Assembly (NCBI GenBank): GCA_963843735.1
Contig: CAWJLN010000008.1
Location: forward strand, 60,877 to 124,876
Direction of reading: 5' to 3'
DNA from: an uncultured Gammaproteobacteria bacterium
Lineage (GTDB): Bacteria > Pseudomonadota > Gammaproteobacteria > JAKDMP01
DNA: 64,000 nt
A program made the translations under genes and the position numbers. This document shows, in pieces, positions 12,364 to 63,620 of the stretch (positions are counted from its first letter, which is position 1; each line of letters starts with the position of its first letter). A model generated the notes under the pieces. That model had not been told where the DNA came from. It searched no databases and saw only the letters and a program-made list of their open reading frames with translations.

Positions 12364-12373
12364 AACCTTTATT

Positions 12374-12410
12374 CCCTCTCTCTTGACGGGAGAGGGCCGG
12401 GGTGAGGGTG
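12374..12410. repeat. Single copy of palindromic repeat family B (CCCTCTCCC-loop-GGGAGAGGG-..GGGGTGAGGG)
   Basis: ccctctctcttgacgggagagggccggggtgagggtg just after the secA stop; matches copies at 28172, 32690, 35172 and 38918. Confidence 0.8.
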
Positions 12411-12547
12411 AAAAACATTAGCGCCATGCATGGTGCGCCTCAATCTTTAAACTCTATCTGACAGTCTATTCTTATGCTTTTTTGAAAATCGAGTGGCTTG
12501 GAGCGGTTCAGTTCGATTGAATTGCAATTTGAAACATTATGGCAAGT

Positions 12548-12840
12548 GCAAGCGCCTGAGAGCGCGGGGACTCGCCCCCGCACGGCGAGATACTTTCTTC
12601 GTGCGCACGAAGAAAGTATCCAAAGAAGGGCGCCCGAAGATGGCGCGCTTGCCTGAAACCGAATCGAAACCGATTCGGTTTCAGCCGCGTCCCCTCGCTG
12701 CTCGCCCGACTCGGAGCCGCGCACACGGGCCATCCATGGCCCGATGCGCGGGCTCGCCATCCCTGGCTCGCCCCACCCTGTGGGTGGGCTTTTTCCCGAG
12801 CCGGGCTGCGCGGCTCGGCGCCATCCAACGGGACAGGAAA
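12548..12840. repeat. ~290-nt multi-hairpin repeat, copy 1 (candidate structured ncRNA or MITE)
   Basis: Aligns end to end with the reverse complement of 61961-62250; several long stems. Confidence 0.85.
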
Positions 12841-12925
12841 GCCAAAGCGCTAACGCTCACTGACTCCCGGCTTCGCGGTTCGCCTACTCGAATTTCAATA
12901 GGGCGATTTTTGTGATTCTGCTTGC

Positions 12926-13873
12926 ATGTCATCGTTGAAGACGATTGAGGTTGCCGCCGGCGTGCTGCGGCGCGGCGATGGCAAAGTGCTCGTCGCCGAA
13001 CGTTCCGCGGAAAAAATCCTCTCGGGACAGCTCGAATTTCCCGGCGGCAAACTGCAAGCGGGCGAAACGCCCGAAGCGGCATTGACGCGGGAATTGCAGG
13101 AAGAGCTCGGCATCATCGAAGCACAGGCGATGCCACTGATCCGTTTCGAGCACGCCTATCCCGGCTTTCGCGCGCGCGTACATCTTTATTCCGTTGTCTC
13201 CTGGCGCGGCGAACCGCAGGGCCGGGAGGGGCAGCGTCTGCTGTGGGCGAGCACGCAGGAACTTCGCGATCTGCCTTTGCTGTCCGCGAATCGTCCGGCC
13301 CTTGCGGCGCTTGAATTGCCGGCAACGCTTGCGATTGTTTCCGAACCGCCGCAGGCCGATCCCGAAGGCTTTCGCCGCCGTTTCGAGCGGACATTGGCGA
13401 ACGATAGAGTCGGTGGCGCGATTCTGCGCCTGCGCAATTCGTCGCTTCCGGGTGCTCTCGCATCCGTACTTGCAAGCGCCGCTCTTGCGCACGGGAAAAT
13501 CCTGCTGCTGAATACCGGGATGGTGATGGAGCCGCCGCCGGGATTTTCTGGATTGCATATTCCTGCCGTCGTACTCGCCGGGCTCGACAGGCGTCCCGCC
13601 GTTGCCGGTTGGATAGGCGCTTCCGTACACAACATCGAAGAGGCGGCACGGGCGCGCAGACTCGGACTCGACTACGTGATTGCCGGCAGCGTGCGCGAGA
13701 CGCCCTCGCATCCGGGCATCGATCCGCTCGGCTGGAACGGCTTCGAAAAGATCGCTGCCGCCGCCGGCATTCCGACCTACGCAATCGGCGGCATGACGCC
13801 GGCGGATTTAGCGCAAGTGCAAGCGCACTGGGGTCAGGGCATCGCCGCCATCCGCGCCTTCCAGGCCGATTGA
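12926..13873 (+). CDS. mutT: MutT-type Nudix hydrolase fused to a thiamine-phosphate-synthase-like domain
   Basis: EFPGGKLQAGETPEAALTRELQEELGI Nudix box; C-terminal GASVH..EA, TPSHP, YAIGG. Confidence 0.88.
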   Translation: MSSLKTIEVAAGVLRRGDGKVLVAERSAEKILSGQLEFPGGKLQAGETPEAALTRELQEELGIIEAQAMPLIRFEHAYPGFRARVHLYSVVSWRGEPQGREGQRLLWASTQELRDLPLLSANRPALAALELPATLAIVSEPPQADPEGFRRRFERTLANDRVGGAILRLRNSSLPGALASVLASAALAHGKILLLNTGMVMEPPPGFSGLHIPAVVLAGLDRRPAVAGWIGASVHNIEEAARARRLGLDYVIAGSVRETPSHPGIDPLGWNGFEKIAAAAGIPTYAIGGMTPADLAQVQAHWGQGIAAIRAFQAD

Positions 13874-27020: not shown

Positions 27021-28166
27021 TTACACGGCTGAGAGGATTTCCAGCAACTGTCGCTCAAACCGCGGCCAGGAGAAACGTTCGGCGAATGCCATGGCGGGGC
27101 GTTCCAGTTCCGCGCGTTGGTTTATCGCCTTGATTACGGCAGCCGCGAATCCGGGGTAATCGCCGGGCGGAACGAGATAGCCGGATTCCCCTTCGGCGAC
27201 GGCATCGGGAATGCCGCCGGCGGCGAAGGCGACGGTGGGAACGCCCCAGGCGGCGGCCTCCAGAGCGACCATGCCGAAGCCTTCCGGGTCGCGCGCATCG
27301 TCGCGTACGGGAAATATATGGACGTCGGCGGCGGGCCAGGCAAGCGCGAGTCCGGCATCGTCGAGCGGGCCGATCAAATGCACGCGATCGGCGATTCCCG
27401 CGGCGGCGGCGGCGCTGCGGATGGCTGCCGCTTCGTCTGCAATGTGTTTGGCGGCATGGCGGGGCACTTCGCCTGCGATGACCAGTTGTGCATCGGGAAT
27501 CTCTGCAAGAATCGCGGGCAGGGCTTGTGCGACAAAAGAGGCAAGACCCTTGCGCGGCGTGAGCCTTCCGGCCGTGAAGAGAATCGCTCCCGCGCTCGAC
27601 AAACCATAGCGCTCGCGGAAGCGCCTTGTCGCCGGTTCGCGCTCGGAAATGCTTTGGGGAACTTCGACGCCAGGATGCAGGATGCGGATACGCGCTTCCG
27701 GCACGCCGGCGGCGCGGGCGAGGCCTGCGGTGTGGCGGCTGTTAACGAGTACGAGGTCCGCGCGGCGGATGGCAGGAACGAACAGGCGTCGGTAGAGCGG
27801 ATGCCGTACGGCGATGTCGAGGCCGTGCAGATAGACTGCATAACGTGCACCGACCTTGCGTGCGGCAAGTCGGGCGATCGGTGCGGTGAGCCCGCTGCCG
27901 GCGAGTACGAGTTGTGGTCGGTAACGTTTGGCGGCCATGCGTGCATTCCGCGCTGCGGCCAGAAGAAACAGTGCTGGGGGCGAGAGCGGGCAGCCGAAGT
28001 ACGCAAGTGCTTGCGTTTCAAGTCGGGCGCCGCGCGGCCCGACGATGATGGTTTTGTAATGCGGACAAAGCGTTTCGGCAACGTGGCCGATCAACCGCTC
28101 CATGCCGCCGATCACGGGTGGCAGGTTGCGCGTGATCAGCAGAACGCGTTCGGTCGCGTCATTCAT
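27021..28166 (-). CDS. Glycosyltransferase family 4 (PimB-like)
   Basis: PPVIGGME, HGLD, PGV, GRLTPRKG, EGFGMVALEAAAWG; start set at MNDATERV because the longer ORF begins inside a repeat. Confidence 0.9.
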   Translation of the reverse strand: MNDATERVLLITRNLPPVIGGMERLIGHVAETLCPHYKTIIVGPRGARLETQALAYFGCPLSPPALFLLAAARNARMAAKRYRPQLVLAGSGLTAPIARLAARKVGARYAVYLHGLDIAVRHPLYRRLFVPAIRRADLVLVNSRHTAGLARAAGVPEARIRILHPGVEVPQSISEREPATRRFRERYGLSSAGAILFTAGRLTPRKGLASFVAQALPAILAEIPDAQLVIAGEVPRHAAKHIADEAAAIRSAAAAAGIADRVHLIGPLDDAGLALAWPAADVHIFPVRDDARDPEGFGMVALEAAAWGVPTVAFAAGGIPDAVAEGESGYLVPPGDYPGFAAAVIKAINQRAELERPAMAFAERFSWPRFERQLLEILSAV

Positions 28167-28171
28167 TTGTT

Positions 28172-28318
28172 CCCTCTCCCCTTGCGGGAGAGGGGTAGGG
28201 TGAGGGGTATCGCCGCTGCGCGGCGACAAGAAGTTTTCTCACCCTCACCCCAACCCTCTCCCGTCGAGGGAGAGGGGGTAAGAAGGATGGGCTCTCCCGT
28301 CGAGGGAGAGGGAGAAAG
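28172..28318. repeat. Family B inverted doublet plus a partial third hairpin
   Basis: ccctctccccttgcgggagaggggtagggtgagggg ... ccctcaccccaaccctctcccgtcgagggagaggg ... ctctcccgtcgagggagaggg. Confidence 0.88.
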
Positions 28319-29342: not shown

Positions 29343-31382
29343 TTAAGGTGCGGCTTCGGCCTGCGCTAGCTGTCGCTGCATGCGCTCGACGACCATGCTC
29401 AGCTTGCCGAGCTTGTTGAGTTTTTCCACGCGGGCGAGCATTTCCTTCGCAAGGGCGAAATCGCGGTCGTCGAGCGCGACGTTGAACACGTTGACCTGAA
29501 ACTGCGCAACGCCGCGCACCGCGTTGGCTGCCTGCAGGAGCTTGGGCGCGCTCTTTGCACGTTGGGCCGGCGTGTCGTAGCCGATGAAGTTGGCCTCGGT
29601 GACGAGCACGTTGGCGTAGTTCATTCCGAGTTCGGTAATCCGCGGACTTTTGTCTATCGCGCGGAACAGGCGCTGAATTTCGCCCGGCTGGATGCGGCAT
29701 TGATGCCGCGTGTAGCAGCCGACGAGCGCCTCCAGCGCGTTGACGTCGGAGACCGTGAACGGGCGCTCGCCCACGGCCTTGACCATGCCGTCGAACCAGG
29801 CGTTCGGCACGGGTTGATCGGTTTGCGCGGCGAGGAGAATCATCGCGACCCAGGGATCGAGCCCCGCGTTTTTTACCTGCGTCGCCTTCTGGGCGTCGGC
29901 AAAGGCGGGCTGCATGTATTGGCGATCGCCGCCGAGCGCAAGGTTGGTCTCGATGCGCGCGAGCAGATACGTGCCGCGCGGCGATTGCGGATGGTGGCTC
30001 GCCTCCGCGTGTGCGAGCGCGAGGTTGCTGCGCCAGTTCCAGGCGCGCGCCGCCGTCGTCAGGCCGAGTGCAATCACGGCTAGCGTTGCGGCGACGGCGA
30101 GCAATGTACGCAGGCGCGGCGCGCGCGCATACAGCAGAACCAGCGCCGCAACCGCGAGGATGACGCCCCAGTCGGCGAGATAGACGCGATGCTCATAGAC
30201 CAGTTCCAGCGGAAAGACGGTGGATTCGAGCACCTGTGCGGCGAAGAACCAGACGATGCCGAGCGCGACCAGCGGCCGGCGCCGGCGCAGCCACCAGGCG
30301 AGCACGAGCAGCGCCGCGATCAGCAGGAAGGAAAGCAGCGTGGTCGGCGGCGAGAGCAGCCCCGTCGAGATCGCGATATCGTCGTGATGCAGGGCCATTG
30401 CCGACAGGCGTGGCACGAGAATCAGGCCGAGATAAAAGATGACCACGCGGCCCTCGGTCAGCACTCGCTCGGGCAAGTTGAATTCGCGGGTGACGAAGCC
30501 GTGGTCGTTCAATACGCCTGGAAGCGTTTGGTACAAACCGATGGCGGCGGGCAGAAAAAGCAGGACCGCGTACAGCCACCAGATTTTTCGTGCAGTGCGT
30601 TCGTCGCTATCCCTGAAGCGGAATACGAAGACTTCGAGCAGCAGGGTAAAAAGCGGCAGCAATACGCCCGTTTCCTTGCACAAGGCGCCGATCGCGGTAA
30701 ACACGGCCACCACCGCCGCGATCAGAATCAGCTTCGGCCAGGTAGTGGCCGTGAACCGCTCGCGCAGATGCACATAGAGCCACAGGCCGGCGAGCGTGAA
30801 CAGGGTGGCGAGAATGGTTTCGCGCTGTACCGCGTAGAGAATCGGCGTCAGGTTCATCGGATGCAGTGCCCAGGCGGCACCGATCGCGAGCGCTATCCAT
30901 TCCACGCGCAGGCGGCTCGTTTCAGGCGAGAGGCGGCGACGCCAGGCAAGCAGCAGGGCGCGCGTGAAGCCGGTCAGGAGCACCACGGCAATCAGATGCA
31001 GGACGAGGTTGATGGTCTTGAACGTGTGCGGATGCAGGCCGAAGAAATAGCGCTCAAGCGCGAAGCTCAAGAGCGAGAGCGGACGTCCGAGCGGGCCCGC
31101 ATTGAACGACCACATCGCGTGCCATAGATGCGCCCACGAAAACCCGTGCATGACGAGGTCGCCGTTGTTGACGATATTGCCGTAGTCGTCAAGCAGCCAG
31201 CCACCGGTGAGCCCGGACATGTACACCAGCCAGGTTGCGACCAGTACGAGGACGACAAGCGCCCAGCGGCCGTAAGGCCCCTCGGGCCAGCGCACGATGT
31301 CGAGTGGGCTGCCGCCGGTTTGCGGCGGTGGGGGCGGGGCGGCGGGCGTCTTGCGGCGTTTCGTGTTCTTGCGTCGGCTCAT
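29343..31382 (-). CDS. TMTC-like membrane glycosyltransferase, paralogue 3 (no repeat insertion)
   Basis: TM1 then WLLDDYGNIVNN, RPLS, HPMN..YAVQR, KE, ERVLTEGRV, EHRVYL, W+helical C-domain. Confidence 0.75.
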   Translation of the reverse strand: MSRRKNTKRRKTPAAPPPPPQTGGSPLDIVRWPEGPYGRWALVVLVLVATWLVYMSGLTGGWLLDDYGNIVNNGDLVMHGFSWAHLWHAMWSFNAGPLGRPLSLLSFALERYFFGLHPHTFKTINLVLHLIAVVLLTGFTRALLLAWRRRLSPETSRLRVEWIALAIGAAWALHPMNLTPILYAVQRETILATLFTLAGLWLYVHLRERFTATTWPKLILIAAVVAVFTAIGALCKETGVLLPLFTLLLEVFVFRFRDSDERTARKIWWLYAVLLFLPAAIGLYQTLPGVLNDHGFVTREFNLPERVLTEGRVVIFYLGLILVPRLSAMALHHDDIAISTGLLSPPTTLLSFLLIAALLVLAWWLRRRRPLVALGIVWFFAAQVLESTVFPLELVYEHRVYLADWGVILAVAALVLLYARAPRLRTLLAVAATLAVIALGLTTAARAWNWRSNLALAHAEASHHPQSPRGTYLLARIETNLALGGDRQYMQPAFADAQKATQVKNAGLDPWVAMILLAAQTDQPVPNAWFDGMVKAVGERPFTVSDVNALEALVGCYTRHQCRIQPGEIQRLFRAIDKSPRITELGMNYANVLVTEANFIGYDTPAQRAKSAPKLLQAANAVRGVAQFQVNVFNVALDDRDFALAKEMLARVEKLNKLGKLSMVVERMQRQLAQAEAAP

Positions 31383-33694
31383 GGTTTACTGCTGTCGGCG
31401 GGTGGGTAAAGGCGGTTGATGAGTTGATCCAGTTTGCGGATGTCGGGATTGCTCATTCCCAGACGGTTGAGTCGGCGCAGCGCCGCAAGTTCCCGGCGTG
31501 CGCCGGCAGCGTCTCCGCTGGCGGCGAGACAGACGCCGAGACTGAAATGATAACCGGGTGAGCCGGGATTGTGCTTCAGCAAGGCCCTGAAAATGCCCGC
31601 CGCCGCCTTGGGTTGGCCGAGCGCATTGAGCAGATAGTTGCCGTAAATCGCCATGACGTAATGGTTTGGCGCGGGGTGGCGCAGCGCCGCCGCGAATACC
31701 GTGATCATGGCACCGGACGGGAAAACGCAAGGGTTCTTTTCGCGGGTCGCGCAATGTCCCAGCGCGTTCAGCGCCGAAATATCCTGGGTATTCGGCGGTT
31801 GCGCATGCAGTCTGTCCGCCATCGCCCGGAACCAGTCGAGACGCATGGGTTCGCCTTGATCATGCGCGAGGAGAACCAGCCCGGAGAGGGCGATGATGCT
31901 TTGTCCCGGCACCCGGTTGGCCGTCTCCAGCGCCTTGCGCGCCGCGGGGGCGAACTTGGGATTGTTGCGGGCGATGATCAGGAGCGCGCGCCCGAAGGCA
32001 TAAGTTGCGCGCGGGGAATCCGGGTGCGTGCGCGCGTCAATCGCCGTGTGGATCAGGGGGTTCGACCAGTTCAGCGAGCGCAACGCAAGGCCCGCGCCGC
32101 AGAGCACGATGATGGCAATCACGGCGGTGATCCGTGCCGCACGCAGCCTTTCGCGGGGGCGGGCGAGAAGCAGAATTCCGAACACCGCAAAAAACAGTCC
32201 CAGCGAAGGCAGATATTCACGATGCTCGAATACCAGCTCCAGCGGGAAGATGCTTGCGGTGAGCGCCTGGCCGGTGAGAAACCACAGGATGCCGAAAGCG
32301 ATCAGCGGCCGGCGCCGCGCGCAGGCGAAGCCGGCGCCGGCAAGCGCGGTGATCCCCGCCCAGGCGGGAAGCGTCGTCCACGGCGAGAAGAGACCGCGCG
32401 AGATCGGGAAGGCGTCGTGGTAAAGCGTCATCGCGTGGATGTTCGGCACCAACGTCCAGTAGAGGTAATGCCAGATCACGCGCCCTTCGGTGAGCAGGCG
32501 TTCGCCGAACGTGAAGTCGCGCGCGGCCCAGGCCTGCGGTGAAAGCACGCCTGGCAGCAGCCAGGCGAGTCCAAGCACAAGCGGCAGCAGCAGAAACACC
32601 GCGAAGTACGCAATACTTGTCCACGCCACCGTTCCCCGGGTTTCTTTTATTCCGCTGGAGGGTGCAAATTTCATGTTCCCTCTCCCATCTTCTCCCTCTC
32701 CACGAAGTGGAGAGGGCCGGGGTGAGGCGCGGGAGAGGGTTAGGGTGAGGGGTAAAAGCCATTTGCGCTGCATCGGTTGTTCTTCACCCTCACCCCAACC
32801 CTCTCCCGTCAAGGGAGAGGGTGAAGATTCTCTCCCCCTTGCCGACGCAGGCGGGAAGGGGGAGCGGGAGGGGGATTCCTTCCCGGTTTCTTGCATTCCG
32901 TTGTGGAAACGGAAAAACACCCACTCGATTACGAGGGCGTAGAGCAGCGTGAGCGCGCCCGATTCCTTCGTCAAAACCGACAGCGGCGTCAACACCAGTG
33001 CCGCCAGAAGCAGCAGGACAACGGCTCCGAACCGGCGCCGATGCTCGAACAGCCATTTGCGCCCCACGATGAAGACAATCAGCGCGAGCAGCGTGAAAGT
33101 TGCGGCGAGCGAGGTCATGCGCTGCACCGTGTACAGCACCGCCGTCAGATTGATCGGCGCGAGCAACCAGGCCGCCGCCACCGCCAGCGCCGTCATATTT
33201 TCGGAAACCGTGATTGAAAGCGGGTAGGAGCGGCGGTCCCCGCCGCGATGGGAGGCATCCGCTTGCATGTGATCGCGACGGGGACCGTCGCTCCTACCTG
33301 TGAAACGGCGCCGCGGCAGCAATAAGGCACCGTCCTTGAGGCGTGCATATTCGCGGAGCAGCAGACGCAACAGCAGAAACACCAGCACGCCGTTCAGGAG
33401 ATGGATCGCGAGATTGACGATCTTCATCGGCCGCGCGTACATGCCGTTGAAGTAATCGTTCAGCGCAAAGCTGGCCATCGCGATCGGACGATCCAGCGTG
33501 CCGACCGAGGGCATGCTGAGCGCGGCGCGCATCATCGCGCCGGGCGTCAGCCGGTGGATTTTCAGCGCCGGGTTCTCGACGATGTTCGGGTAATCATCGA
33601 ACATGAATCCGCCGTGCGTACCCGGCCAATAGGCGAGCGCCGTCGCCGCGAGCACCACGGCCAAACCAAGCCAGGGCAAGCAACGGCGGCTCAT
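31379..33694 (-). CDS. TMTC-like membrane glycosyltransferase, paralogue 2 (two in-frame repeat insertions)
   Basis: FMFDDYPNIVENP, RPIA, YTVQRM, KESG, ERLLTEGRV, EHREYLPS; ATGA overlaps at both ends. Confidence 0.75.
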   Translation of the reverse strand: MSRRCLPWLGLAVVLAATALAYWPGTHGGFMFDDYPNIVENPALKIHRLTPGAMMRAALSMPSVGTLDRPIAMASFALNDYFNGMYARPMKIVNLAIHLLNGVLVFLLLRLLLREYARLKDGALLLPRRRFTGRSDGPRRDHMQADASHRGGDRRSYPLSITVSENMTALAVAAAWLLAPINLTAVLYTVQRMTSLAATFTLLALIVFIVGRKWLFEHRRRFGAVVLLLLAALVLTPLSVLTKESGALTLLYALVIEWVFFRFHNGMQETGKESPSRSPFPPASARGRESSPSPLTGEGWGEGEEQPMQRKWLLPLTLTLSRASPRPSPLRGEGEDGRGNMKFAPSSGIKETRGTVAWTSIAYFAVFLLLPLVLGLAWLLPGVLSPQAWAARDFTFGERLLTEGRVIWHYLYWTLVPNIHAMTLYHDAFPISRGLFSPWTTLPAWAGITALAGAGFACARRRPLIAFGILWFLTGQALTASIFPLELVFEHREYLPSLGLFFAVFGILLLARPRERLRAARITAVIAIIVLCGAGLALRSLNWSNPLIHTAIDARTHPDSPRATYAFGRALLIIARNNPKFAPAARKALETANRVPGQSIIALSGLVLLAHDQGEPMRLDWFRAMADRLHAQPPNTQDISALNALGHCATREKNPCVFPSGAMITVFAAALRHPAPNHYVMAIYGNYLLNALGQPKAAAGIFRALLKHNPGSPGYHFSLGVCLAASGDAAGARRELAALRRLNRLGMSNPDIRKLDQLINRLYPPADSSKP
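32678..32878. repeat. Family B/C repeat cluster inside paralogue 2
   Basis: Nested family B copies, an inverted family B copy and a family C copy; encodes ESPSRSPFP..SPSPLTGEGWGEG..PLTLTLSR..PSPLRGEG. Confidence 0.88.
33224..33297. repeat. GTAG-REP doublet (REPIN) inside paralogue 2
   Basis: gtaggagcggcggtccccgccgcgat-22 nt-atcgcgacggggaccgtcgctcctac; same REP as flanks the RAYT. Confidence 0.9.
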
Positions 33695-35943
33695 GGTTTG
33701 TGCGCCGCTTTGGATGCGCGCAATTGTTTTTCGAGAGCGGCACGTACGCGCTTGAAGGACTCGCTGTACCAACCGCTGCGCTCGAGCCACCAGCGATGCA
33801 GACGCGCCATGTTCCAGCCGTGCGCTTGCGGCTTCTCAAGCCTCCGGTATTCGTCGAGCAGCTTCAGGCCGAGCCGCGGCTTGTGCGCCACATACATGTC
33901 GGCGGCGGTGACAAGTGCCGTATCCGGTTTCGGCACGAGCGGCAGCGATTGCGCAAAGGCATCGAAGGCTTCTCCGGCTTTGCCCTGACGCAGCAGCAAA
34001 CGCCCGCGCAGTACCAGGAATTCCTGGCGCAGCGCCGGGTACGGATTGAAGTGCGGGTTGGCGAGCGCCGCCGTCGGAATCGCCTGCAATCCGGCGGTGG
34101 TAAGCGGTGGGCAGGGAGCGCTCTCGATGCGTTTGGCGAGCCGCGCGACGCCATTGTAGATAAGGCCCGAGCCTGCCCGGGAATGCGCCGCGGCATAGAC
34201 CGTCGCCACGAGATCGGCGGGTCTCGCCTGCCGCAGCTCGCAGGCGACGTTGAGCGCGCTGAGCGCGATGCTGATGTTGTCCGGTTGTGCGCGCGTCGCG
34301 AGGCGCAGTTTCTTGAGCGCGAGGTCCGGATGTCCGGCGGCCGTAAGTCCTTCGGATCCCCACACCTGTGCGCGCGTGGAATGGGGATTCAGCCGCATCC
34401 AGACGAGTGAAAGTTCCGCACCCTTGCCCCAGAGATCGGCGCGCAATGCGGTGAACGCGAGAAGCAGTACAAGTGCGAACGTTGCGATGCCAGCACGCAG
34501 CGCGCGGGTGCCGGGTCCGCGCAGTATCCACCATGCGAGCGGCCAGAAAAGAAGCGCCGCCGGGAGATAGTTGCGATGTTCGTAAAAGAGTTCCAGCGGA
34601 ATAGTGGTGGATTCCAGCAACTGCCCGGCGAGATAAAACAGGATTGCCGCGGCGAGCACGGGCAGGCGCCGGCGCACGGCGAATGCGAAGGCGATCAACG
34701 CGGCGACGATCAGGATGGCGGGCAGTGTCGTCCACGGATCGAACAGGCCGTGCGAAACCGCGACGCTCGTGAACAAACCCTGTGTTCCGGCATGCGGAAT
34801 CACGAGGAGGTACAGATAATCCACCAGCACCCGCCCTTCGGTGAGCAGGCGTTCGAGGATGGTGAAATTGCGGTAGGGCAGTGAAGTCAGTGCGTGACGA
34901 AGCGGGTAGAGGACGTAGGCGAACAGGGCTAACGAAGGCAGCCACAGAAAAATCGCCCGGAACGCAAGAAATCCCCCTCCAACTCCCCCTTCCCGCCTGC
35001 GGCGGCAAAGGGGAGGGCAGGATTTCTTTTCCCCTTCCCGCCTGCGGCGGCAAAGGGGAGGGCAGGATTTCTTTCCCCCTTCCCGCCTGCGGCGGCAAAG
35101 GGGAGGGCAGGATTTTCCTCCCCCTTGCCCGTCTTCGGGGAAGGGGGAGCGGGAGGGGGATTCTTCTTGCCCCCTCTCCCCTTGCGGGAGAGGGTTGGGG
35201 TGAGGGGTATTGCCGCGCGGCGCCGATTGTTTCTCACCCTCACCCCCGCCCTCTCCCGTCAAGGGAGAGGGGGAAGAAGACAACACCGTCCATTCCAGCA
35301 CGAGCGCGAGTAGCGGCAGCAGCGCCGCGTTTTCTTTCGACAAGGTGCCGAAAAAAGTGCCGCCGACGATGCCGACAATCATTAACGTGTAAGCGGAGCG
35401 CGTGTGCCCCGCATTCAGCCGCGCGCGTCCCCAGACGTAGAGGTTCAAGCCCGCGAACACGAACAGCGCGGCGAGGATCGTCATGCGCTGCACCACGTAA
35501 AGCGTGGTCGAGACGAAGAGCGGATGCGCCAGCCACAATCCGGCGCCGAGTATGCCGACCCACATCGCGCGCCGTGCGTCGAGTCCGCGCGCCAGCGAAA
35601 GTTGGCGCAGCAGCAGTGCGAGCAATGCGCCCGACAGAAGATGCAGCAGCAGATTGCTGAGCTTGAATGGCCAGGGGTTTGCCGGCCAGTTGTGCGCGTC
35701 CATTAGAAAGCTTGCAAGCGCGAGCGGGCGCCCGGTCGGCCCGGCGATGCCGCTGGTGAGATAGCTCGCGAGCGTCACCGGATTGTCCACCGGTCCATAG
35801 GCGCCGAGCGCCGGCAGATTCGCCCAGTCGTCGAGCAGGAACGGCCCGGAGAGGCCGGGGTAATAGGCGGCGGCTACGAGACCGAGCAGGCCGAGCAACG
35901 CCAGCCAGGGCAGGAACGGGCGCAGGCGGAGCGGAATACGCAT
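33691..35943 (-). CDS. TMTC-like membrane glycosyltransferase, paralogue 1 (~104-aa in-frame repeat insertion)
   Basis: FLLDDWANL, GRPLA, HPLF..YVVQRM, KENA, ERLLTEGRV, EHRNYLP. Confidence 0.75.
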   Translation of the reverse strand: MRIPLRLRPFLPWLALLGLLGLVAAAYYPGLSGPFLLDDWANLPALGAYGPVDNPVTLASYLTSGIAGPTGRPLALASFLMDAHNWPANPWPFKLSNLLLHLLSGALLALLLRQLSLARGLDARRAMWVGILGAGLWLAHPLFVSTTLYVVQRMTILAALFVFAGLNLYVWGRARLNAGHTRSAYTLMIVGIVGGTFFGTLSKENAALLPLLALVLEWTVLSSSPSPLTGEGGGEGEKQSAPRGNTPHPNPLPQGERGQEESPSRSPFPEDGQGGGKSCPPLCRRRREGGKKSCPPLCRRRREGEKKSCPPLCRRRREGGVGGGFLAFRAIFLWLPSLALFAYVLYPLRHALTSLPYRNFTILERLLTEGRVLVDYLYLLVIPHAGTQGLFTSVAVSHGLFDPWTTLPAILIVAALIAFAFAVRRRLPVLAAAILFYLAGQLLESTTIPLELFYEHRNYLPAALLFWPLAWWILRGPGTRALRAGIATFALVLLLAFTALRADLWGKGAELSLVWMRLNPHSTRAQVWGSEGLTAAGHPDLALKKLRLATRAQPDNISIALSALNVACELRQARPADLVATVYAAAHSRAGSGLIYNGVARLAKRIESAPCPPLTTAGLQAIPTAALANPHFNPYPALRQEFLVLRGRLLLRQGKAGEAFDAFAQSLPLVPKPDTALVTAADMYVAHKPRLGLKLLDEYRRLEKPQAHGWNMARLHRWWLERSGWYSESFKRVRAALEKQLRASKAAHKP
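34969..35280. repeat. Family C tandem array (3 x 45 bp) plus family C and family B copies inside paralogue 1
   Basis: ccccttcccgcctgcggcggcaaaggggagggcaggattt starts at 34986, 35031 and 35076; family B doublet at 35172-35275. Confidence 0.92.
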
Positions 35944-36807: not shown

Positions 36808-36935
36808 GTAGGAGCGGTCGTCCCGGCCGCGATTGCGGCGGTGGAGTTTTGCAAGGGCTTATCGCGGCGGGGACCGCCGCTCCTACGGGAGGCGAAGTTG
36901 TGGCGTAGGAGCGGTCGTCCCGGCCGCGATGGCAG
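36808..36935. repeat. Three alternating GTAG-REPs (BIME-like) next to the RAYT
   Basis: REPs at 36808-36833 (+), 36861-36886 (-) and 36905-36930 (+). Confidence 0.92.
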
Positions 36936-36938
36936 CGT

Positions 36939-37424
36939 TTAAAGCCAGGCCGCATCCCAGAACGGGTAATCTCCAATACTTGGCACGAGTCCGGCCCGCA
37001 GTGGGTTTGCAATGACGTAACGCGCCATTTTGCGAAGGTCTTCATCGCGCCGCGCGGCATGATCGTGGAATCCGGCTTGCCAGACACGACGGCCCGGGCG
37101 TCCTGCACACAGGTTCAGGCGGCGGGCTGTATAGCCTTTGACGGACCTCATCAGTTCCGAAAGCGTATGTTTCGCGTCGAGCGTAACAAGCCAGTGGAGA
37201 TGGTCGGGCATTACAACCCATGCCAGCGATTGGGTCCGGCCGGTCCGGTGATGATGCGCAAGTGCGCGGGCTACAACGCAGCCGGCGTCGAAGTCGGCGA
37301 ACAACGGTTGGCGATCATGGGTGACGGCGGTGAGTAGATAGGCTTGTTCGGGACCCGAAAAGCGTCCGCGGCGAAGCGCGTGTCCGTGCCACGGTGGATT
37401 GCGCGCAGGCATGTAAGCCGCCAT
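36939..37424 (-). mobile_element. REP-associated tyrosine transposase (RAYT, HUH/Y1)
   Basis: LRRGRFS, MPDHLHWL (HUH), WQAGFHDH, YVIANPLRAGLV; REPs on both sides. Confidence 0.93.
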
Positions 37425-37447
37425 GGAGAAATGGTAACGCTATTGGA

Positions 37448-37522
37448 ATCGCGGCGGGGACCGCCGCTCCTGCGGGAGGCGAGGTTGTGGCGTAGGAGCG
37501 GTCGTCCCGATCGTGATGGCAG
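37448..37522. repeat. REP pair upstream of the RAYT
   Basis: 75-bp direct repeat of 36861-36935 with 5 mismatches. Confidence 0.9.
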
Positions 37523-37528
37523 TCGGAG

Positions 37529-38917
37529 TTACAGGATTTCGGTGGCGTGATCGGCGAGGCGCGAGCGCTCGACTCTTCGCAGCGTGACGTGTCCGGAATG
37601 CTGCCAGTCCTTGAAACGATCCACGACGTAGGTCAGCCCCGATGTGGTTTCGGTGAGGTAGGGCGTATCAATCTGCGCGATGTTGCCGAGGGCGATTATC
37701 TTGGTGCCGGGGCCGGCGCGGGTGATAAGCGCCTTGATCTGTTTGGCGGTGAGGTTCTGCGCCTCGTCAATGATGATGTAGCGGTTGAGGAAGGTGCGTC
37801 CGCGCATGAAGTTGAGCGAACGAATCTTGATGCGGCTCGCAAGCAGATCCTGCGTCGCGCCGCGACCCCAGACGCCGCCTTCGTCCGAGGTGGTGAGCAC
37901 TTCGAGATTGTCCATGAGTGCGCCCATCCACGGCGTCATCTTTTCTTCCTCGGTGCCGGGCAGAAAGCCGATGTCTTCGCCGAGCGGGACGGTGACGCGC
38001 GTCATCACGATCTCGCGATAGCGCTTGTCGTCGAGCGTCTGCGCGAGGCCCGCGGCGAGCGCGAGCAGCGTCTTGCCGGTACCCGCCTGACCGAGCAGGG
38101 TGACGAAGTCGAGGTCGGGATCCATGAGCAGATTGAGGGCGTAGCTTTGTTCGCGGTTGCGCGCGGCGATGCCCCACACGGCGTGACGCTCGCGCTGGTA
38201 GTCCTGCACGATTTCGGCGGTAATTGTCTCCGCTCCCGCCTCGCGCACGAGGAGTTCCAGCCCGTCCTCTTCGCTGTACAAAAACTGGTTGGGCCAGACG
38301 GCGAGCGGTGGGCGCGCAAAACGATAGAGCGTGCGCATGTTGTCGTGCCAGGATTGGAGATGTGCCGCCTCGCTTGCGAGAAAGCCTGCGGGCAGCGGCT
38401 CCGCGCCGCGATAAAGCAGATCGGTGTCGTCAAGCACGCGGTCGTTGTAGTAGTCCTCGACCTTCAGGCCGAGCACTGCGGCCTTGATGCGCAGGTTAAT
38501 GTCCTTGGAGACCAGCGTGACCCGTCCGGGATGCAGCTCTTCAAGCGCGAGGGTTGCGGCAAGCAAGGCGTTGTCGGCGGTGTCGGCGGCGAGCGTGCCG
38601 TCGTGCTGCGGCTTGAGCACTTCGGTTTGCAGGAAAAGGCGTCCGCTCGCCTGTGCGCCGTTTTCGATGGCGAGTTCGCCGAGTGCAACGCCGGCCTCGA
38701 TCTCGGCGCGGCCGCGTTCGTGCACGAGTGCATCGAGAAGCCGGCTCGCCTGGCGGACGTTGCGCGCCGCTTCCGTCAGCCCTTTCTTGTTGGCGTCCAG
38801 CTCTTCGAGCACGATCATGGGGATGAAGACGTCGTGCTCGGCGAAGCCGAACAGGGCCGCCGGGTCGTGCATCAGCACGTTGGTGTCGAGCACGAGCAGG
38901 CGCGTCCTTTCCTTCAC
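37529..38917 (-). CDS. PhoH family protein (PIN + PhoH ATPase)
   Basis: VLDTNVLMHDP PIN domain, GQAGTGKT, IGFLPG, RGRT, DEAQN; start set at GTG 38917. Confidence 0.92.
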   Translation of the reverse strand: MKERTRLLVLDTNVLMHDPAALFGFAEHDVFIPMIVLEELDANKKGLTEAARNVRQASRLLDALVHERGRAEIEAGVALGELAIENGAQASGRLFLQTEVLKPQHDGTLAADTADNALLAATLALEELHPGRVTLVSKDINLRIKAAVLGLKVEDYYNDRVLDDTDLLYRGAEPLPAGFLASEAAHLQSWHDNMRTLYRFARPPLAVWPNQFLYSEEDGLELLVREAGAETITAEIVQDYQRERHAVWGIAARNREQSYALNLLMDPDLDFVTLLGQAGTGKTLLALAAGLAQTLDDKRYREIVMTRVTVPLGEDIGFLPGTEEEKMTPWMGALMDNLEVLTTSDEGGVWGRGATQDLLASRIKIRSLNFMRGRTFLNRYIIIDEAQNLTAKQIKALITRAGPGTKIIALGNIAQIDTPYLTETTSGLTYVVDRFKDWQHSGHVTLRRVERSRLADHATEIL

Positions 38918-39027
38918 CCTCTCCCCTTGCGGGAGAGGGTTGGGGTGAGGGGTCTTGTCGCCGCGCGGCGGTGCGTGGGCGCCTTTCACCCTCACCCCCG
39001 CCCTCTCCCGTCAAGGGAGAGGGGGTA
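38915..39027. repeat. Family B inverted doublet
   Basis: ccctctccccttgcgggagagggttggggtgagggg ... ccctcacccccgccctctcccgtcaagggagaggg. Confidence 0.9.
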
Positions 39028-39059
39028 AGAATGCTGCTCTTTCCGGAAGGCGTTTGGTT

Positions 39060-61895: not shown

Positions 61896-61960
61896 AAAGA
61901 ATGTTTCGGCTGAAAATCGAGCGGATCGCCTGGATAAGGTTGTGTATGGTGTGCCGATCT

Positions 61961-62250
61961 TCCGTTCCCGTGGATGGCGCCGCGCCGCGCAGCCCGACTC
62001 GGACAAAAGCCCGCCCGCAGGGCGGGGCGAGCCAGGGATGGCGAGCCCGCGCAGCGGGCCATGGATGGCCCGTCTGCGCGGCTCCGAGGCGGGCGGGCAG
62101 TGAGGGAACGCGACTGAAATGGAATCGTCTTCGATTCGATTTCAGTCAAGCGCGCCATCCTCGGGCGACTTCCTTTGGTTACTTTCCTTGTTCGCACAAG
62201 GAAAGTAACTCGCCGTGCGGGGGCGAGGCCCCGCGCACTCAGGTGTTTGC
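61961..62250. repeat. ~290-nt multi-hairpin repeat, copy 2 (inverted relative to copy 1)
   Basis: Reverse complement aligns to 12548-12840 with compensatory changes in stems. Confidence 0.85.
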
Positions 62251-62267: not shown

Positions 62268-63620
62268 ATGAATGCGGCTGAAGGTGAACACGTTTCAGGC
62301 CCGCAACGGATCGGGCATTACGTCATCACCCGCGAACTCGGGCGCGGGAGTACCAGCCGCGTTTACCTCGCCCATGATTCCGAGCGCGGTGCCGACGTTG
62401 CGCTCAAGCTCTATCACGGCGACGATGTGCGTCCGGAGCGCGCGCATACCCGGCGCAAACTCTTCGCCAACGAGGCGCGCCTTGCCGGCGAACTCCACCA
62501 TCCCAATATCGTGCAGGTATTCGATTCCGGCGAGACGGACGACAAGGCCTACATAGTCACCGAATACCTGCGCGGCGCCGAAGCGTTGGGCGCGCATGCC
62601 CGGCTCGGCAGCCTGCTGCCCAAGCGCCGCGTGGTGGAGATACTCTTTGCCTGCGCCAAGGCGCTCGATTACGCGCATGGCCGTGGCGTGGTGCATCGTG
62701 ACATCAAACCGTCCAATATCCTTCTCATGCCCGACGGCACACCGAAGATCATAGATTTCGGCATTGCCGTGATGTCGCTTACCGGCACGCAGACCGTTAC
62801 CGGTCTCGTCGGTTCGCCGAGTTACATGGCGCCCGAGCAGGTGCGCGACGGTGCTGCAAGCGTGCATTCCGACATCTACTCGCTTGGCGTGGTGGGCTAC
62901 GAATTACTGAGTGGGAAGCGCCCGTTCTATGGTGAGAATCTCTCGCATCTCATGCATCAGATTATTTACGCGACGCCGCGACCGTTGGCGCGCCTGCGCG
63001 CGAGTGTGTCCCCGGAGCTGGAGGCCATTATCGCCCGCGCGATGGAGAAGGAACCGGCGCGGCGTTTCCCGAATGCGCTTGCAATGGCGGCGCAACTGGC
63101 GCGCGTGGCGGCGAAGTTCGAACACGAAGCCGGACGGCTGGAGCCGCGCGATCGCTTCGACATTGCGCGGCATCTGCCGTTTTTCCGCGACTTCGGCTAT
63201 GCCGAGGTCTGGGAGGCCGTGAGTTGTGCCGATTGGCGCGACTACGCCGAAGGCGAGGAAATAGTCGCTGTCGGCAGCCTTGAGCGCGTCTTTTATATTG
63301 TGATTACGGGCGAGGTTGCGCTGGAGTGTGACGGTCGGTGCATGCGGCAGCTGTATCGCGGCGGGACTTTCGGGGAACTCACGCTGCTTGCCGGGCGTGC
63401 GCGTGTGACCACGGCGCGCGCATTGACGCCCGCACTCGTGATGCGCGTGGATGCGGCGCAACTCGAAACGACGTCTGCGGCCTGCCGGCTTGCCTTCTAC
63501 AAGGTTTTCAATCGAGCGTTGCTGCGTCGCCTCGCCGATACCTACCGCAATCCCGAAATTCAGGAGCAGGAATACGTGGCTGGAAACGATCGTCCCGATC
63601 GCGATTCGGCGGCGGAGTAG
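62268..63620 (+). CDS. Hanks-type Ser/Thr kinase with C-terminal cNMP-binding domain
   Basis: VALK, HRDIKPSN, DFG, YMAPEQ; C-terminal YIVITGEV..FGELTLL..RVTTARA. Confidence 0.9.
   Translation: MNAAEGEHVSGPQRIGHYVITRELGRGSTSRVYLAHDSERGADVALKLYHGDDVRPERAHTRRKLFANEARLAGELHHPNIVQVFDSGETDDKAYIVTEYLRGAEALGAHARLGSLLPKRRVVEILFACAKALDYAHGRGVVHRDIKPSNILLMPDGTPKIIDFGIAVMSLTGTQTVTGLVGSPSYMAPEQVRDGAASVHSDIYSLGVVGYELLSGKRPFYGENLSHLMHQIIYATPRPLARLRASVSPELEAIIARAMEKEPARRFPNALAMAAQLARVAAKFEHEAGRLEPRDRFDIARHLPFFRDFGYAEVWEAVSCADWRDYAEGEEIVAVGSLERVFYIVITGEVALECDGRCMRQLYRGGTFGELTLLAGRARVTTARALTPALVMRVDAAQLETTSAACRLAFYKVFNRALLRRLADTYRNPEIQEQEYVAGNDRPDRDSAAE

Follow-up and report, generated by a model that had tools for sequence, protein, structure and literature searches.

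The stretch of DNA analysed here (the window, 64,000 nucleotides from an uncultured soil gammaproteobacterium; C8:60877-124876 in an assembly of 2.08 Mb, 13 contigs and 75.7% completeness) holds two inverted copies of a repeat of about 290 nucleotides (nt), in which base changes on one side of a helix are matched on the other. The question raised by this locus is what the repeat is, and whether its fold acts as RNA or as single-stranded DNA. Judged by its sequence, the element is an extended TwoAYGGAY RNA (RF01731), a new lineage-specific member of that class and not a new class. TwoAYGGAY is an old "orphan" bacterial RNA motif, widespread and multi-copy. The explanation favoured here, to which we give a probability of roughly 0.6, is that of a dispersed small-RNA gene of the extended TwoAYGGAY class, presenting a site for a CsrA dimer and ending in a stabilising triple-helix pseudoknot.

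Two copies in the window

A repeat search of the window returned one inverted pair (12548-12834 and 61964-62250) with arms of 287 nt that are 87% complementary, in agreement with the two inverted copies described in the original prediction, and this observation is confirmed as real. Both strands fold well beyond chance (z of -7.48 and -7.83; 0 of 200 shuffles fold as well). In alignment A1 (7 sequences) the three double-sided changes announced for a 14-bp stem are all present: from copy 1 to copy 2, U-A becomes A-U at columns 220/249, C-G becomes U-A at 228/241, and U-A becomes C-G at 230/239. The difference between CCCaCCC/GGGtGGG and CCCgCCC/GGGcGGG was found as an A-U to G-C change of pair 51/62, and in the CUGAAA stem the claimed swap (161/180) and the claimed new mismatch, a G.G (162/179), were both seen. 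Also proposed earlier were the long-range pairings GATGGCGC/GCGCCATC and GCCCGxCTCGG/CCGAGxCGGGC; these are helices of the RNAalifold consensus and covary in 48 relatives. For copy 1, it is the strand opposite to the one first read that is informative.

The features of the two copies are given below; R1 is a covariance model built only from the copies of this genome plus one relative.

12548..12840, minus strand: copy 1 of the element (model core 12560-12835; R1, 305.5 bits, model positions 1-276)
to ~12540 (3' side) and to ~12845 (5' side), minus strand: extensions of copy 1, conserved at the 3' end and short at the 5' end
12819..12826, minus strand: 5' strand of the long basal stem of copy 1 (GGAUGGCG), paired with 12638-12645
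12795..12806, minus strand: 5' strand of the junction-closing stem of copy 1, paired with 12704-12715 (consensus fold, covariation)
12772..12788, minus strand: G+C hairpin of copy 1, with a run of A before it (consensus fold)
12752..12771, minus strand: first GGA-loop hairpin of copy 1, GCGAGCC-AGGGAU-GGCGAGC, with a tandem G.A in the stem (Rfam alignment)
12717..12751, minus strand: second GGA-loop hairpin of copy 1, loop AUGGAU (Rfam alignment, consensus fold)
12704..12715, minus strand: 3' strand of the junction-closing stem of copy 1 (consensus fold)
12646..12689, minus strand: CUGAAA hairpin of copy 1 within the extended basal stem, missing from several relatives
12638..12645, minus strand: 3' strand of the basal stem of copy 1 (CGCCAUCU), paired with 12819-12826
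12630..12633, minus strand: 5' strand of the predicted pseudoknot stem of copy 1, GCGC, paired with the GCGC loop of the 12590-12619 hairpin
12622..12628, minus strand: putative pyrimidine third strand of copy 1, CUUCUUU, parallel to the purine strand GAAGAAA (12594-12600)
12590..12619, minus strand: the hairpin of 13-14 bp in copy 1 to which the original prediction drew attention, here stem 2 of the predicted pseudoknot (consensus fold, 3'-domain parse)
12562..12589, minus strand: 3'-terminal hairpin region of copy 1, CUCGCC/GGCGAG overlapping GCGGGG/CCCCGC (consensus fold)
61957..62250, plus strand: copy 2 of the element (model core 61963-62238; R1, 316.1 bits), with a 3' extension that ends 18 nt before the ATG of a kinase gene
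62027..62081, plus strand: the two GGA-loop hairpins of copy 2 (AGGGAU, AUGGAU; RF01731, 31.8 bits)
62165..62208, plus strand: pseudoknot and putative triple-helix module of copy 2 (3'-domain parse, permutation tests)
62165-62168, plus strand: 5' strand of the predicted pseudoknot stem of copy 2, GCGA, paired with UCGC
62170-62176, plus strand: putative pyrimidine third strand of copy 2, UUCCUUU, over AAGGAAA (62198-62204)

All eight pairs of the outer (basal) helix are changed on both sides among the 48 relatives. On the opposite (plus) strand, the G+C hairpin at 12772..12788 resembles a terminator, with TTTTT after it. The region 12562..12589 may hold a second pseudoknot that is specific to the lineage.

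A fold kept by covariation

Relatives were gathered by scanning genome contigs for a 20-letter pattern taken from the first GGA hairpin, which gave 33 loci. Eleven of them hold 14 full-length R1 matches, all in metagenome-assembled genomes that are gammaproteobacterial or unclassified proteobacterial; at the other 22 the R1 matches are short and partial, or there are none. In alignment A2, which comprises 21 sequences (20 distinct, the public record L025 scoring the same as the row of relative G003), 94.5% of the cells are paired, compared with about 40% in slid controls, and 85 of 99 pairs are changed on both sides. A set of 48 sequences, which includes loci from the genomes G128 and G059, gives 92.4% paired cells against 38.5-41.8% in slid controls, and 98 of 99 pairs with a change on both sides. 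For either set, 0 of 500 shuffles reach the observed values.

Covariation is as good in helices with strands separated by 90-180 nt as in the hairpins. For this reason conversion within a palindrome, considered earlier as a possible sole cause of the changes, is excluded as an explanation of the covariation. The claim that selection acts on the fold and not on a protein is strongly supported, and the covariation that preserves the fold extends across distant lineages of Gammaproteobacteria.

The 3' domain: a pseudoknot and a putative third strand

The 3' domain of the copy 2 RNA reads GG[GCGA]C[UUCCUUU]GG-UUACUUUCCUUGU-[UCGC]-ACAAGGAAAGUAA. Its counterparts in copy 1 are [GCGC], [CUUCUUU], the loop [GCGC] and the purine strand ACGAAGAAAGUAU. 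The loop change from U in copy 2 to G in copy 1 is matched by a change from A to C in the upstream pseudoknot strand. Two of the stem changes between the window copies are also matched in the third strand, in parallel register with the purine strand: from copy 1 to copy 2, 230/239 by U to C, and 228/241 by C to U. For copies within one genome this is unusually clean evidence of tertiary structure, with two stem changes each matched in the third strand and a loop change matched in the pseudoknot strand.

Among the relatives, 36 of 41 distinct 3' domains were parsed by alignment column (the hairpin was left unparsed in L032, L070:1190, L023, L072:1705 and L082:1349) and collapsed to 19 purine-strand types and 28 segment/loop types. 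The parallel run of U on A and C on G has a mean of 6.53 for a domain's own strands against 5.31 +/- 0.17 for permuted ones, a value reached in 0 of 10,000 permutations (19 types). In asymmetric variants the parallel run is longer than the antiparallel one, e.g. 7 vs 5, 8 vs 6 and 10 vs 7. The Watson-Crick run from the upstream segment to the loop behaves in the same way, with means of 3.61 (own) and 2.50 +/- 0.15 (permuted; 0 of 10,000, 28 types). This loop-to-upstream pairing is made by 13 different sequence pairs, among them GCGA/UCGC, GCGC/GCGC, UGCC/GGCA, GCUUGACC/GGUCAAGC, GCGCCC/GGGCGC, GUCGCC/GGCGAC and GUA/UAC. The pseudoknot together with the third strand is the most widely kept sequence feature of the family.

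Together these pairings describe an H-type pseudoknot whose loop 1 occupies the major groove of stem 2, and the covariation points to a major-groove triple helix of seven layers (U.A-U and C+.G-C). The pyrimidine motif is preferred because the strand evidence (see below) favours the TwoAYGGAY orientation and because pyrimidine-motif triple helices are the kind known in natural RNAs. Within the literature that was searchable, no paper names both TwoAYGGAY and a triple helix. The main text of the preprint 10.64898/2026.09.22.753630, in its accessible part, contains neither "triplex" nor "Hoogsteen", and where "triple" occurs in it (three times) the word is "triplet" or "triplets".

The RNAalifold consensus also placed a helix GGGCG/CUCGCC around the 3' hairpin. 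This helix is the weakest in the fold (77.1% paired in the 48 sequences) and was dropped; it would be sterically incompatible with the pseudoknot and the third strand, and we regard it as wrong. In G128, two members of the family (L082 1349-1632 and L072 1705-1940) carry another structured insert within or after the loop of the putative triple-helix hairpin.

Strand of the proposed RNA

In the TwoAYGGAY orientation the cells with G.U or U.G outnumber those with A.C or C.A by 193 to 58 in the 48 sequences (165 to 53 outside the close subfamily, and 67 to 20 in the smaller set). The minimum free energy, which is independent of the model, is lower in the same orientation for 44 of the 48 sequences and for 18 of the 21 in the smaller set. 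The evidence leans to an RNA read from the minus strand at copy 1 and from the plus strand at copy 2, as in TwoAYGGAY. The original prediction had offered an RNA and a single-stranded DNA as alternatives; between them, the preponderance of G.U, the better folding of one strand, the tandem G.A and a third strand that runs parallel all lean to RNA.

Relationship to TwoAYGGAY

No named family had been assigned to the repeat before, and this has to be corrected. Rfam at gathering thresholds gives no match within the window. At relaxed thresholds RF01731 matches the minus strand at 12713-12777 (34.7 bits, E 8e-4, model positions 45-113 of 168), and the matched part of copy 1 consists of two hairpins with CAUGGAUG loops. 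Five of the six close copies in the genome score 31.8-34.7 bits (copy 2 at 31.8), and the sixth, in which the second hairpin is degraded, has no RF01731 match. The loops are AUGGAU and AGGGAU in the window copies, both AUGGAU in the C4 copy, and both ACGGAU in the G003/L025 copy. The stem of the first hairpin, GCGAGCC...GGCGAGC, holds a G.A/A.G tandem between Watson-Crick pairs, replaced in one relative by the fully paired GCGCGCC/GGCGCGC. A tandem G.A in one stem is noted for TwoAYGGAY in the accessible part of PMC4333381.

RF01731 was searched against 151 sampled genomes of the class, this one included, and five have matches above the cut-off. R1 was then found in full length (positions 1-276), and on the strand of the Rfam hit, at 16 of the 26 RF01731 loci tried. 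G128 and G059, the two genomes richest in hits above the cut-off, account for all 16; the ten loci with no R1 match come from G108, G110, G076, G136 and G114. A model built from one genome's copies thus reaches bona fide TwoAYGGAY members, and because R1 matches at these 16 loci the element is homologous to one architectural subtype of them. A match to a described Rfam family had been named beforehand as the result that would speak against novelty: in substance RF01731 is such a match, although the Rfam score itself lies below the cut-off. What is gained is a lineage of uncultured soil Gammaproteobacteria, added to TwoAYGGAY, that the Rfam model misses at its cut-off.

The accessible text of the preprint 10.64898/2026.09.22.753630 (bioRxiv, September 2026) describes a subtype in Pseudomonadota whose basal stem is elongated and which has three extra hairpins and, at the 3' end, a pseudoknot; some variants miss the hairpin within the basal stem, and median copy numbers in Pseudomonas groups are 11-23, with 48 matches given for Pseudomonas fluorescens SBW25. 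It also reports divergent doublets and GMTBT(T) repeats upstream, and discusses sponging of Csr/Rsm and spread like that of mobile elements. The elongated basal stem and additional hairpins are present in our element (the outer helices covary; the hairpins lie at 12772-12788, 12646-12689 and 12590-12619), and these hairpins probably correspond to those in the preprint's figure, as far as its accessible part describes them. GMTBT(T) 5-mers are not enriched upstream of the six copies (1.5 per 200 nt, against 1.41 in 5000 random windows; P 0.47), and this genome holds no doublets, no two of its nine full-length members lying within 2 kb. Divergent head-to-head doublets, 60-80 nt apart, were seen in other Gammaproteobacteria (L040 252-765, L024 65-574), and the G128 and G059 loci also hold such doublets (e.g. 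L053 1171-1719). The SBW25 repeat family R200 (320 bp, 47 copies, according to the accessible part of PMC2718517) is a candidate for the same element.

CsrA and the proposed function

In the explanation favoured here, each copy would be a small gene encoding a structured RNA some 280-330 nt long, with the minus strand as the transcribed RNA sequence at copy 1 and the plus strand at copy 2. In its 5' domain, a long basal stem closes a junction that bears the G+C hairpin and two adjacent hairpins, each with a CA(N)GGAUG loop. A dimer of CsrA/RsmA may bind the two GGA loops, which lie about 28 nt from each other, so that the RNA would titrate or recruit the regulator; the triple-helix end would keep the RNA compact and long-lived, and the copies may multiply in the manner of a mobile element, by a process that requires both element ends. 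GGA in a hairpin loop is the preferred target of CsrA, which as a dimer binds two sites. The genome encodes a typical CsrA of 73 amino acids (aa), the loops of the element read CA(N)GGAUG, and GGA is present in both apical loops of 30 of the 48 members (in the first hairpin of 35, in the second of 38). A CsrA proposal for TwoAYGGAY is in print in PMC4333381 and in preprint 10.64898/2026.09.22.753630, in the accessible part of each. If both the triple helix and CsrA binding are true, the family would link a mobile repeat to global post-transcriptional control.

Several points weigh against this explanation. Concerning the class, none of the six RF01731 matches in the genome reaches the 43-bit gathering cut-off, and in five of six copies one loop is AGGGAU, not AYGGAY. 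The covariation counts have to be read with the way in which they were obtained: A2 and A3 were fitted to the model structure and are biased towards it, part of the set was found with the first-GGA-hairpin pattern, which makes the conservation of that hairpin partly a matter of construction, and the sequences, being related, do not count as independent. By symmetry, the same three-way covariation would result from a purine-motif triplex on the opposite strand, and A.C mismatches that would be G.U on that strand occur in the degraded C7 copy and in the G003 copy. As for expression, a promoter scan found no sigma-70-like promoter at either copy, the sequences 5' of the copies lack conservation, and the RNA orientation shows no U-tract terminator, the sole terminator-like hairpin being on the opposite strand. 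Five sequencing runs, all from soil and one of them a metatranscriptome, hold parts of the window; the DNA contigs from such runs break inside the repeat, and the RNA run offers one contig of 151 nt over 12809-12959, of strand not known, which is no evidence of transcription, strand or ends. Finally, GGA is missing from one or both apical loops in 18 of the 48 relatives, and for that reason binding of CsrA cannot by itself explain the family.

A more selfish version of the same idea can be put forward tentatively, with a minor chance of being right: a mobile small-RNA gene in which a seven-layer triple-helix pseudoknot shields the 3' end of the RNA or serves the machinery that copies it, and the many dispersed copies jointly build up enough RNA with GGA loops to tune CsrA.

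The best surviving rival, which we consider unlikely, keeps the structured RNA and gives it a role other than CsrA titration, for example as the scaffold of some other protein, as a pseudoknot that binds a ligand, or as the template or primer when the element copies itself through RNA. It would account for the 18 of 48 relatives that keep the fold with no GGA in at least one apical loop, for the wide conservation of the 3' pseudoknot and third strand, and for the existence of solo 3'-end fragments. H-type pseudoknots with major-groove triples are also found in telomerase RNA and in the SAM-II, SAM-V and preQ1-II riboswitches. However, the genome shows no reverse transcriptase above the Pfam cut-off (one RVT_1 hit, 25.2 vs 29.6 bits, in an assembly that is 75.7% complete), and no conserved neighbour gene hints at a ligand or a partner.

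Copies in the genome, insertion sites and the DNA-level rival

A genome-wide BLAST search, suggested in the original prediction, returned a repeat family and not just one pair. There are six full-length close copies, 87-90% identical to copy 1, and a solo 3'-end fragment. A deletion derivative (C11:20619-20713) is deleted between two GGGGCGAG repeats, and in a mini-copy of ~55 nt (C1:136461-136499) the 5' end is joined to the 3' end; the deletion derivatives retain both termini of the element. R1 adds three divergent full-length members (C6:86252-86493, C6:52874-53114 and C13:8583-8820), which makes nine in total. In the same bacterial family, seven of nine genomes (this one included) have R1 matches, the six relatives with 3-11 each. 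The core of C13:8583-8820 is matched by the whole RF01731 model (positions 1-168, 34 bits), with loops ACAGGACG and AUGGAU; the member is syntenic in G003, where that subtype is multi-copy. The unpublished genome G003 supplies one row of A1, A2 and A3 (L012), as well as the empty secA site described below, the synteny of the C13 member and one member count, and G005, likewise unpublished, supplies its own member count and data at the C13 and C6:86252 sites.

Copy 1 has secA on one side and a NUDIX-ThiE fusion gene on the other; copy 2 is flanked by a PgpA-domain gene and by the gene of a Ser/Thr kinase that has a domain binding cyclic nucleotide monophosphates. These flanking genes agree with the earlier description, as does the distance of 18 nt from the end of copy 2 at 62250 to the kinase ATG at 62268. 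The neighbours of the six copies are unrelated housekeeping genes (secA, NUDIX-ThiE, PgpA, kinase, poly(A) polymerase-family, GH3, ispF, rpsF and POR). The secA-NUDIX spacer holds no element in the four relatives in which both flanks were read (G003, G004, G006 and G008); each of these spacers holds other repeats, and the exact ends of the element were not obtained from them, the spacers being too different. The C13 member is syntenic in G003 only and missing at that site in G001, G004, G005, G006, G007 and G008, and the C6:86252 member is missing at its site in at least G001, G003, G004 and G006. The family is multi-copy and insertion-polymorphic.

Being also intergenic, the family could be a DNA-level mobile element similar to miniature inverted-repeat transposable elements (MITEs) or repetitive extragenic palindromes (REPs), the fold acting as single-stranded DNA or as a cruciform for a transposase or recombinase and the RNA being incidental. 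This would suit the mixed orientation to neighbouring genes (2 copies the same, 3 opposite, 1 between divergent genes), the retention of both termini in the deletion derivatives, the copy that abuts an inverted 5'-end fragment of another, and the Y1 transposases in the genome, among them a gene resembling a REP-associated tyrosine transposase (RAYT). Yet in five of six copies neither the terminal inverted matches (5-8 nt), as a sign of terminal inverted repeats, nor the flanking direct matches (5-6 nt), as a sign of target duplications, exceed the shuffles, and in the sixth (C11) the excess is explained by the neighbouring inverted 5'-end fragment. The ends of the IS200-like element, present in four identical copies, are unrelated to our element, and no TnpB was found in the genome, although in an assembly that is 76% complete a missing enzyme counts for little. 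The G.U excess (193 vs 58) and the better folding of one strand (44 of 48) point to RNA, the GGA loops are conserved across lineages, and the tandem G.A and the pyrimidine-motif third strand are typical of RNA. We regard the DNA-level reading as quite improbable.

A cis-acting leader or terminator of adjacent genes, in line with the Rfam type of RF01731 (Cis-reg), with the end of copy 2 just upstream of the kinase gene in the same direction, and with the opposite-strand G+C hairpin and T run that resembles an intrinsic terminator and faces secA in copy 1, is very improbable, given neighbouring genes that are unrelated, mixed orientations and the absence of the element from the same sites in relatives.

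Other repeats were seen along with the family. The IS200-like element is ~580 nt long, with a Y1 transposase and subterminal hairpins (C5:145729-146091, C5:180503-180865, C9:144027-144389 and C9:432301-432663). An open reading frame of 161 aa on the minus strand of the window (36939-37424) has a weak Y1_Tnp match (37 bits) and is flanked by two direct 75-nt repeats that are 93% alike (36861-36935 and 37448-37522), so that 36861-37522 looks like a RAYT with REP-type repeats. The flanking repeat differs from our element, and a similar one is found in the secA spacer of G003. A REP-like palindrome of ~45 nt (CCCTCTCCC...GGGAGAGGG...GGGGTGAGGG) has dozens of copies in the genome and its relatives; its sites in the window include 12369-12417, 28164-28288, 32765-32881, 35160-35277, 38909-39029 and others, and one copy lies 143 nt past the 3' end of copy 1. 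At 30178-34872 there are three direct repeats (107 nt and 63 nt) that are 67-78% alike and follow one another at a spacing of about 2.0-2.4 kb; they suggest three tandem paralogous genes split by REP clusters.

Comparison with known systems

With MITEs and with REP/REPIN sequences the element shares being short, non-coding, intergenic, multi-copy and structured, with deletion derivatives. It differs from them in that terminal inverted repeats, a target duplication and matching transposase ends are all missing, and it is far larger and more intricate than a REP.

The sponge RNAs CsrB, CsrC and RsmX/Y/Z likewise carry GGA motifs in hairpin loops, and the genome encodes csrA. The sponges have many GGA sites, whereas the element has two to four; it is, moreover, dispersed, multi-copy and insertion-polymorphic, with a long closing stem and a pseudoknot.

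Triple-helix pseudoknots of telomerase RNA, SAM-II/SAM-V and preQ1-II, and the triple helix of ENE/MALAT1, resemble the proposed 3' domain in the pyrimidine strand parallel to the purine strand of a helix, in the U.A-U and C+.G-C layers, and in the H-type loop 1 placed in the groove of stem 2. The element differs in belonging to a family of bacterial repeats for which neither a ligand nor a poly(A) partner is known, and its triple helix is deduced from covariation.

The closest relative is TwoAYGGAY itself (RF01731; Weinberg et al. 2010, PMC2864571, accessible part), in which two neighbouring hairpins likewise share a stem and end in CA(Y)GGAUG loops, with the same tandem G.A in one stem and the same occurrence in Gammaproteobacteria. 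The element departs from it in its score (31.8-34.7 bits, below 43), in the AGGGAU loop of five of six copies, and in the replacement of the outer stem of the Rfam model by a much longer multi-helix closure, followed by the 3' pseudoknot domain. The subtype in the accessible text of preprint 10.64898/2026.09.22.753630, compared by description only, differs in its host, Pseudomonas and not an uncultured soil gammaproteobacterium, and in the doublets and GMTBT(T) enrichment that this genome lacks. It agrees with the element in the elongated basal stem, the three extra hairpins and the 3' pseudoknot, in the variants with no hairpin within the basal stem, and in its multi-copy, mobile-element-like spread, with divergent doublets in relatives.

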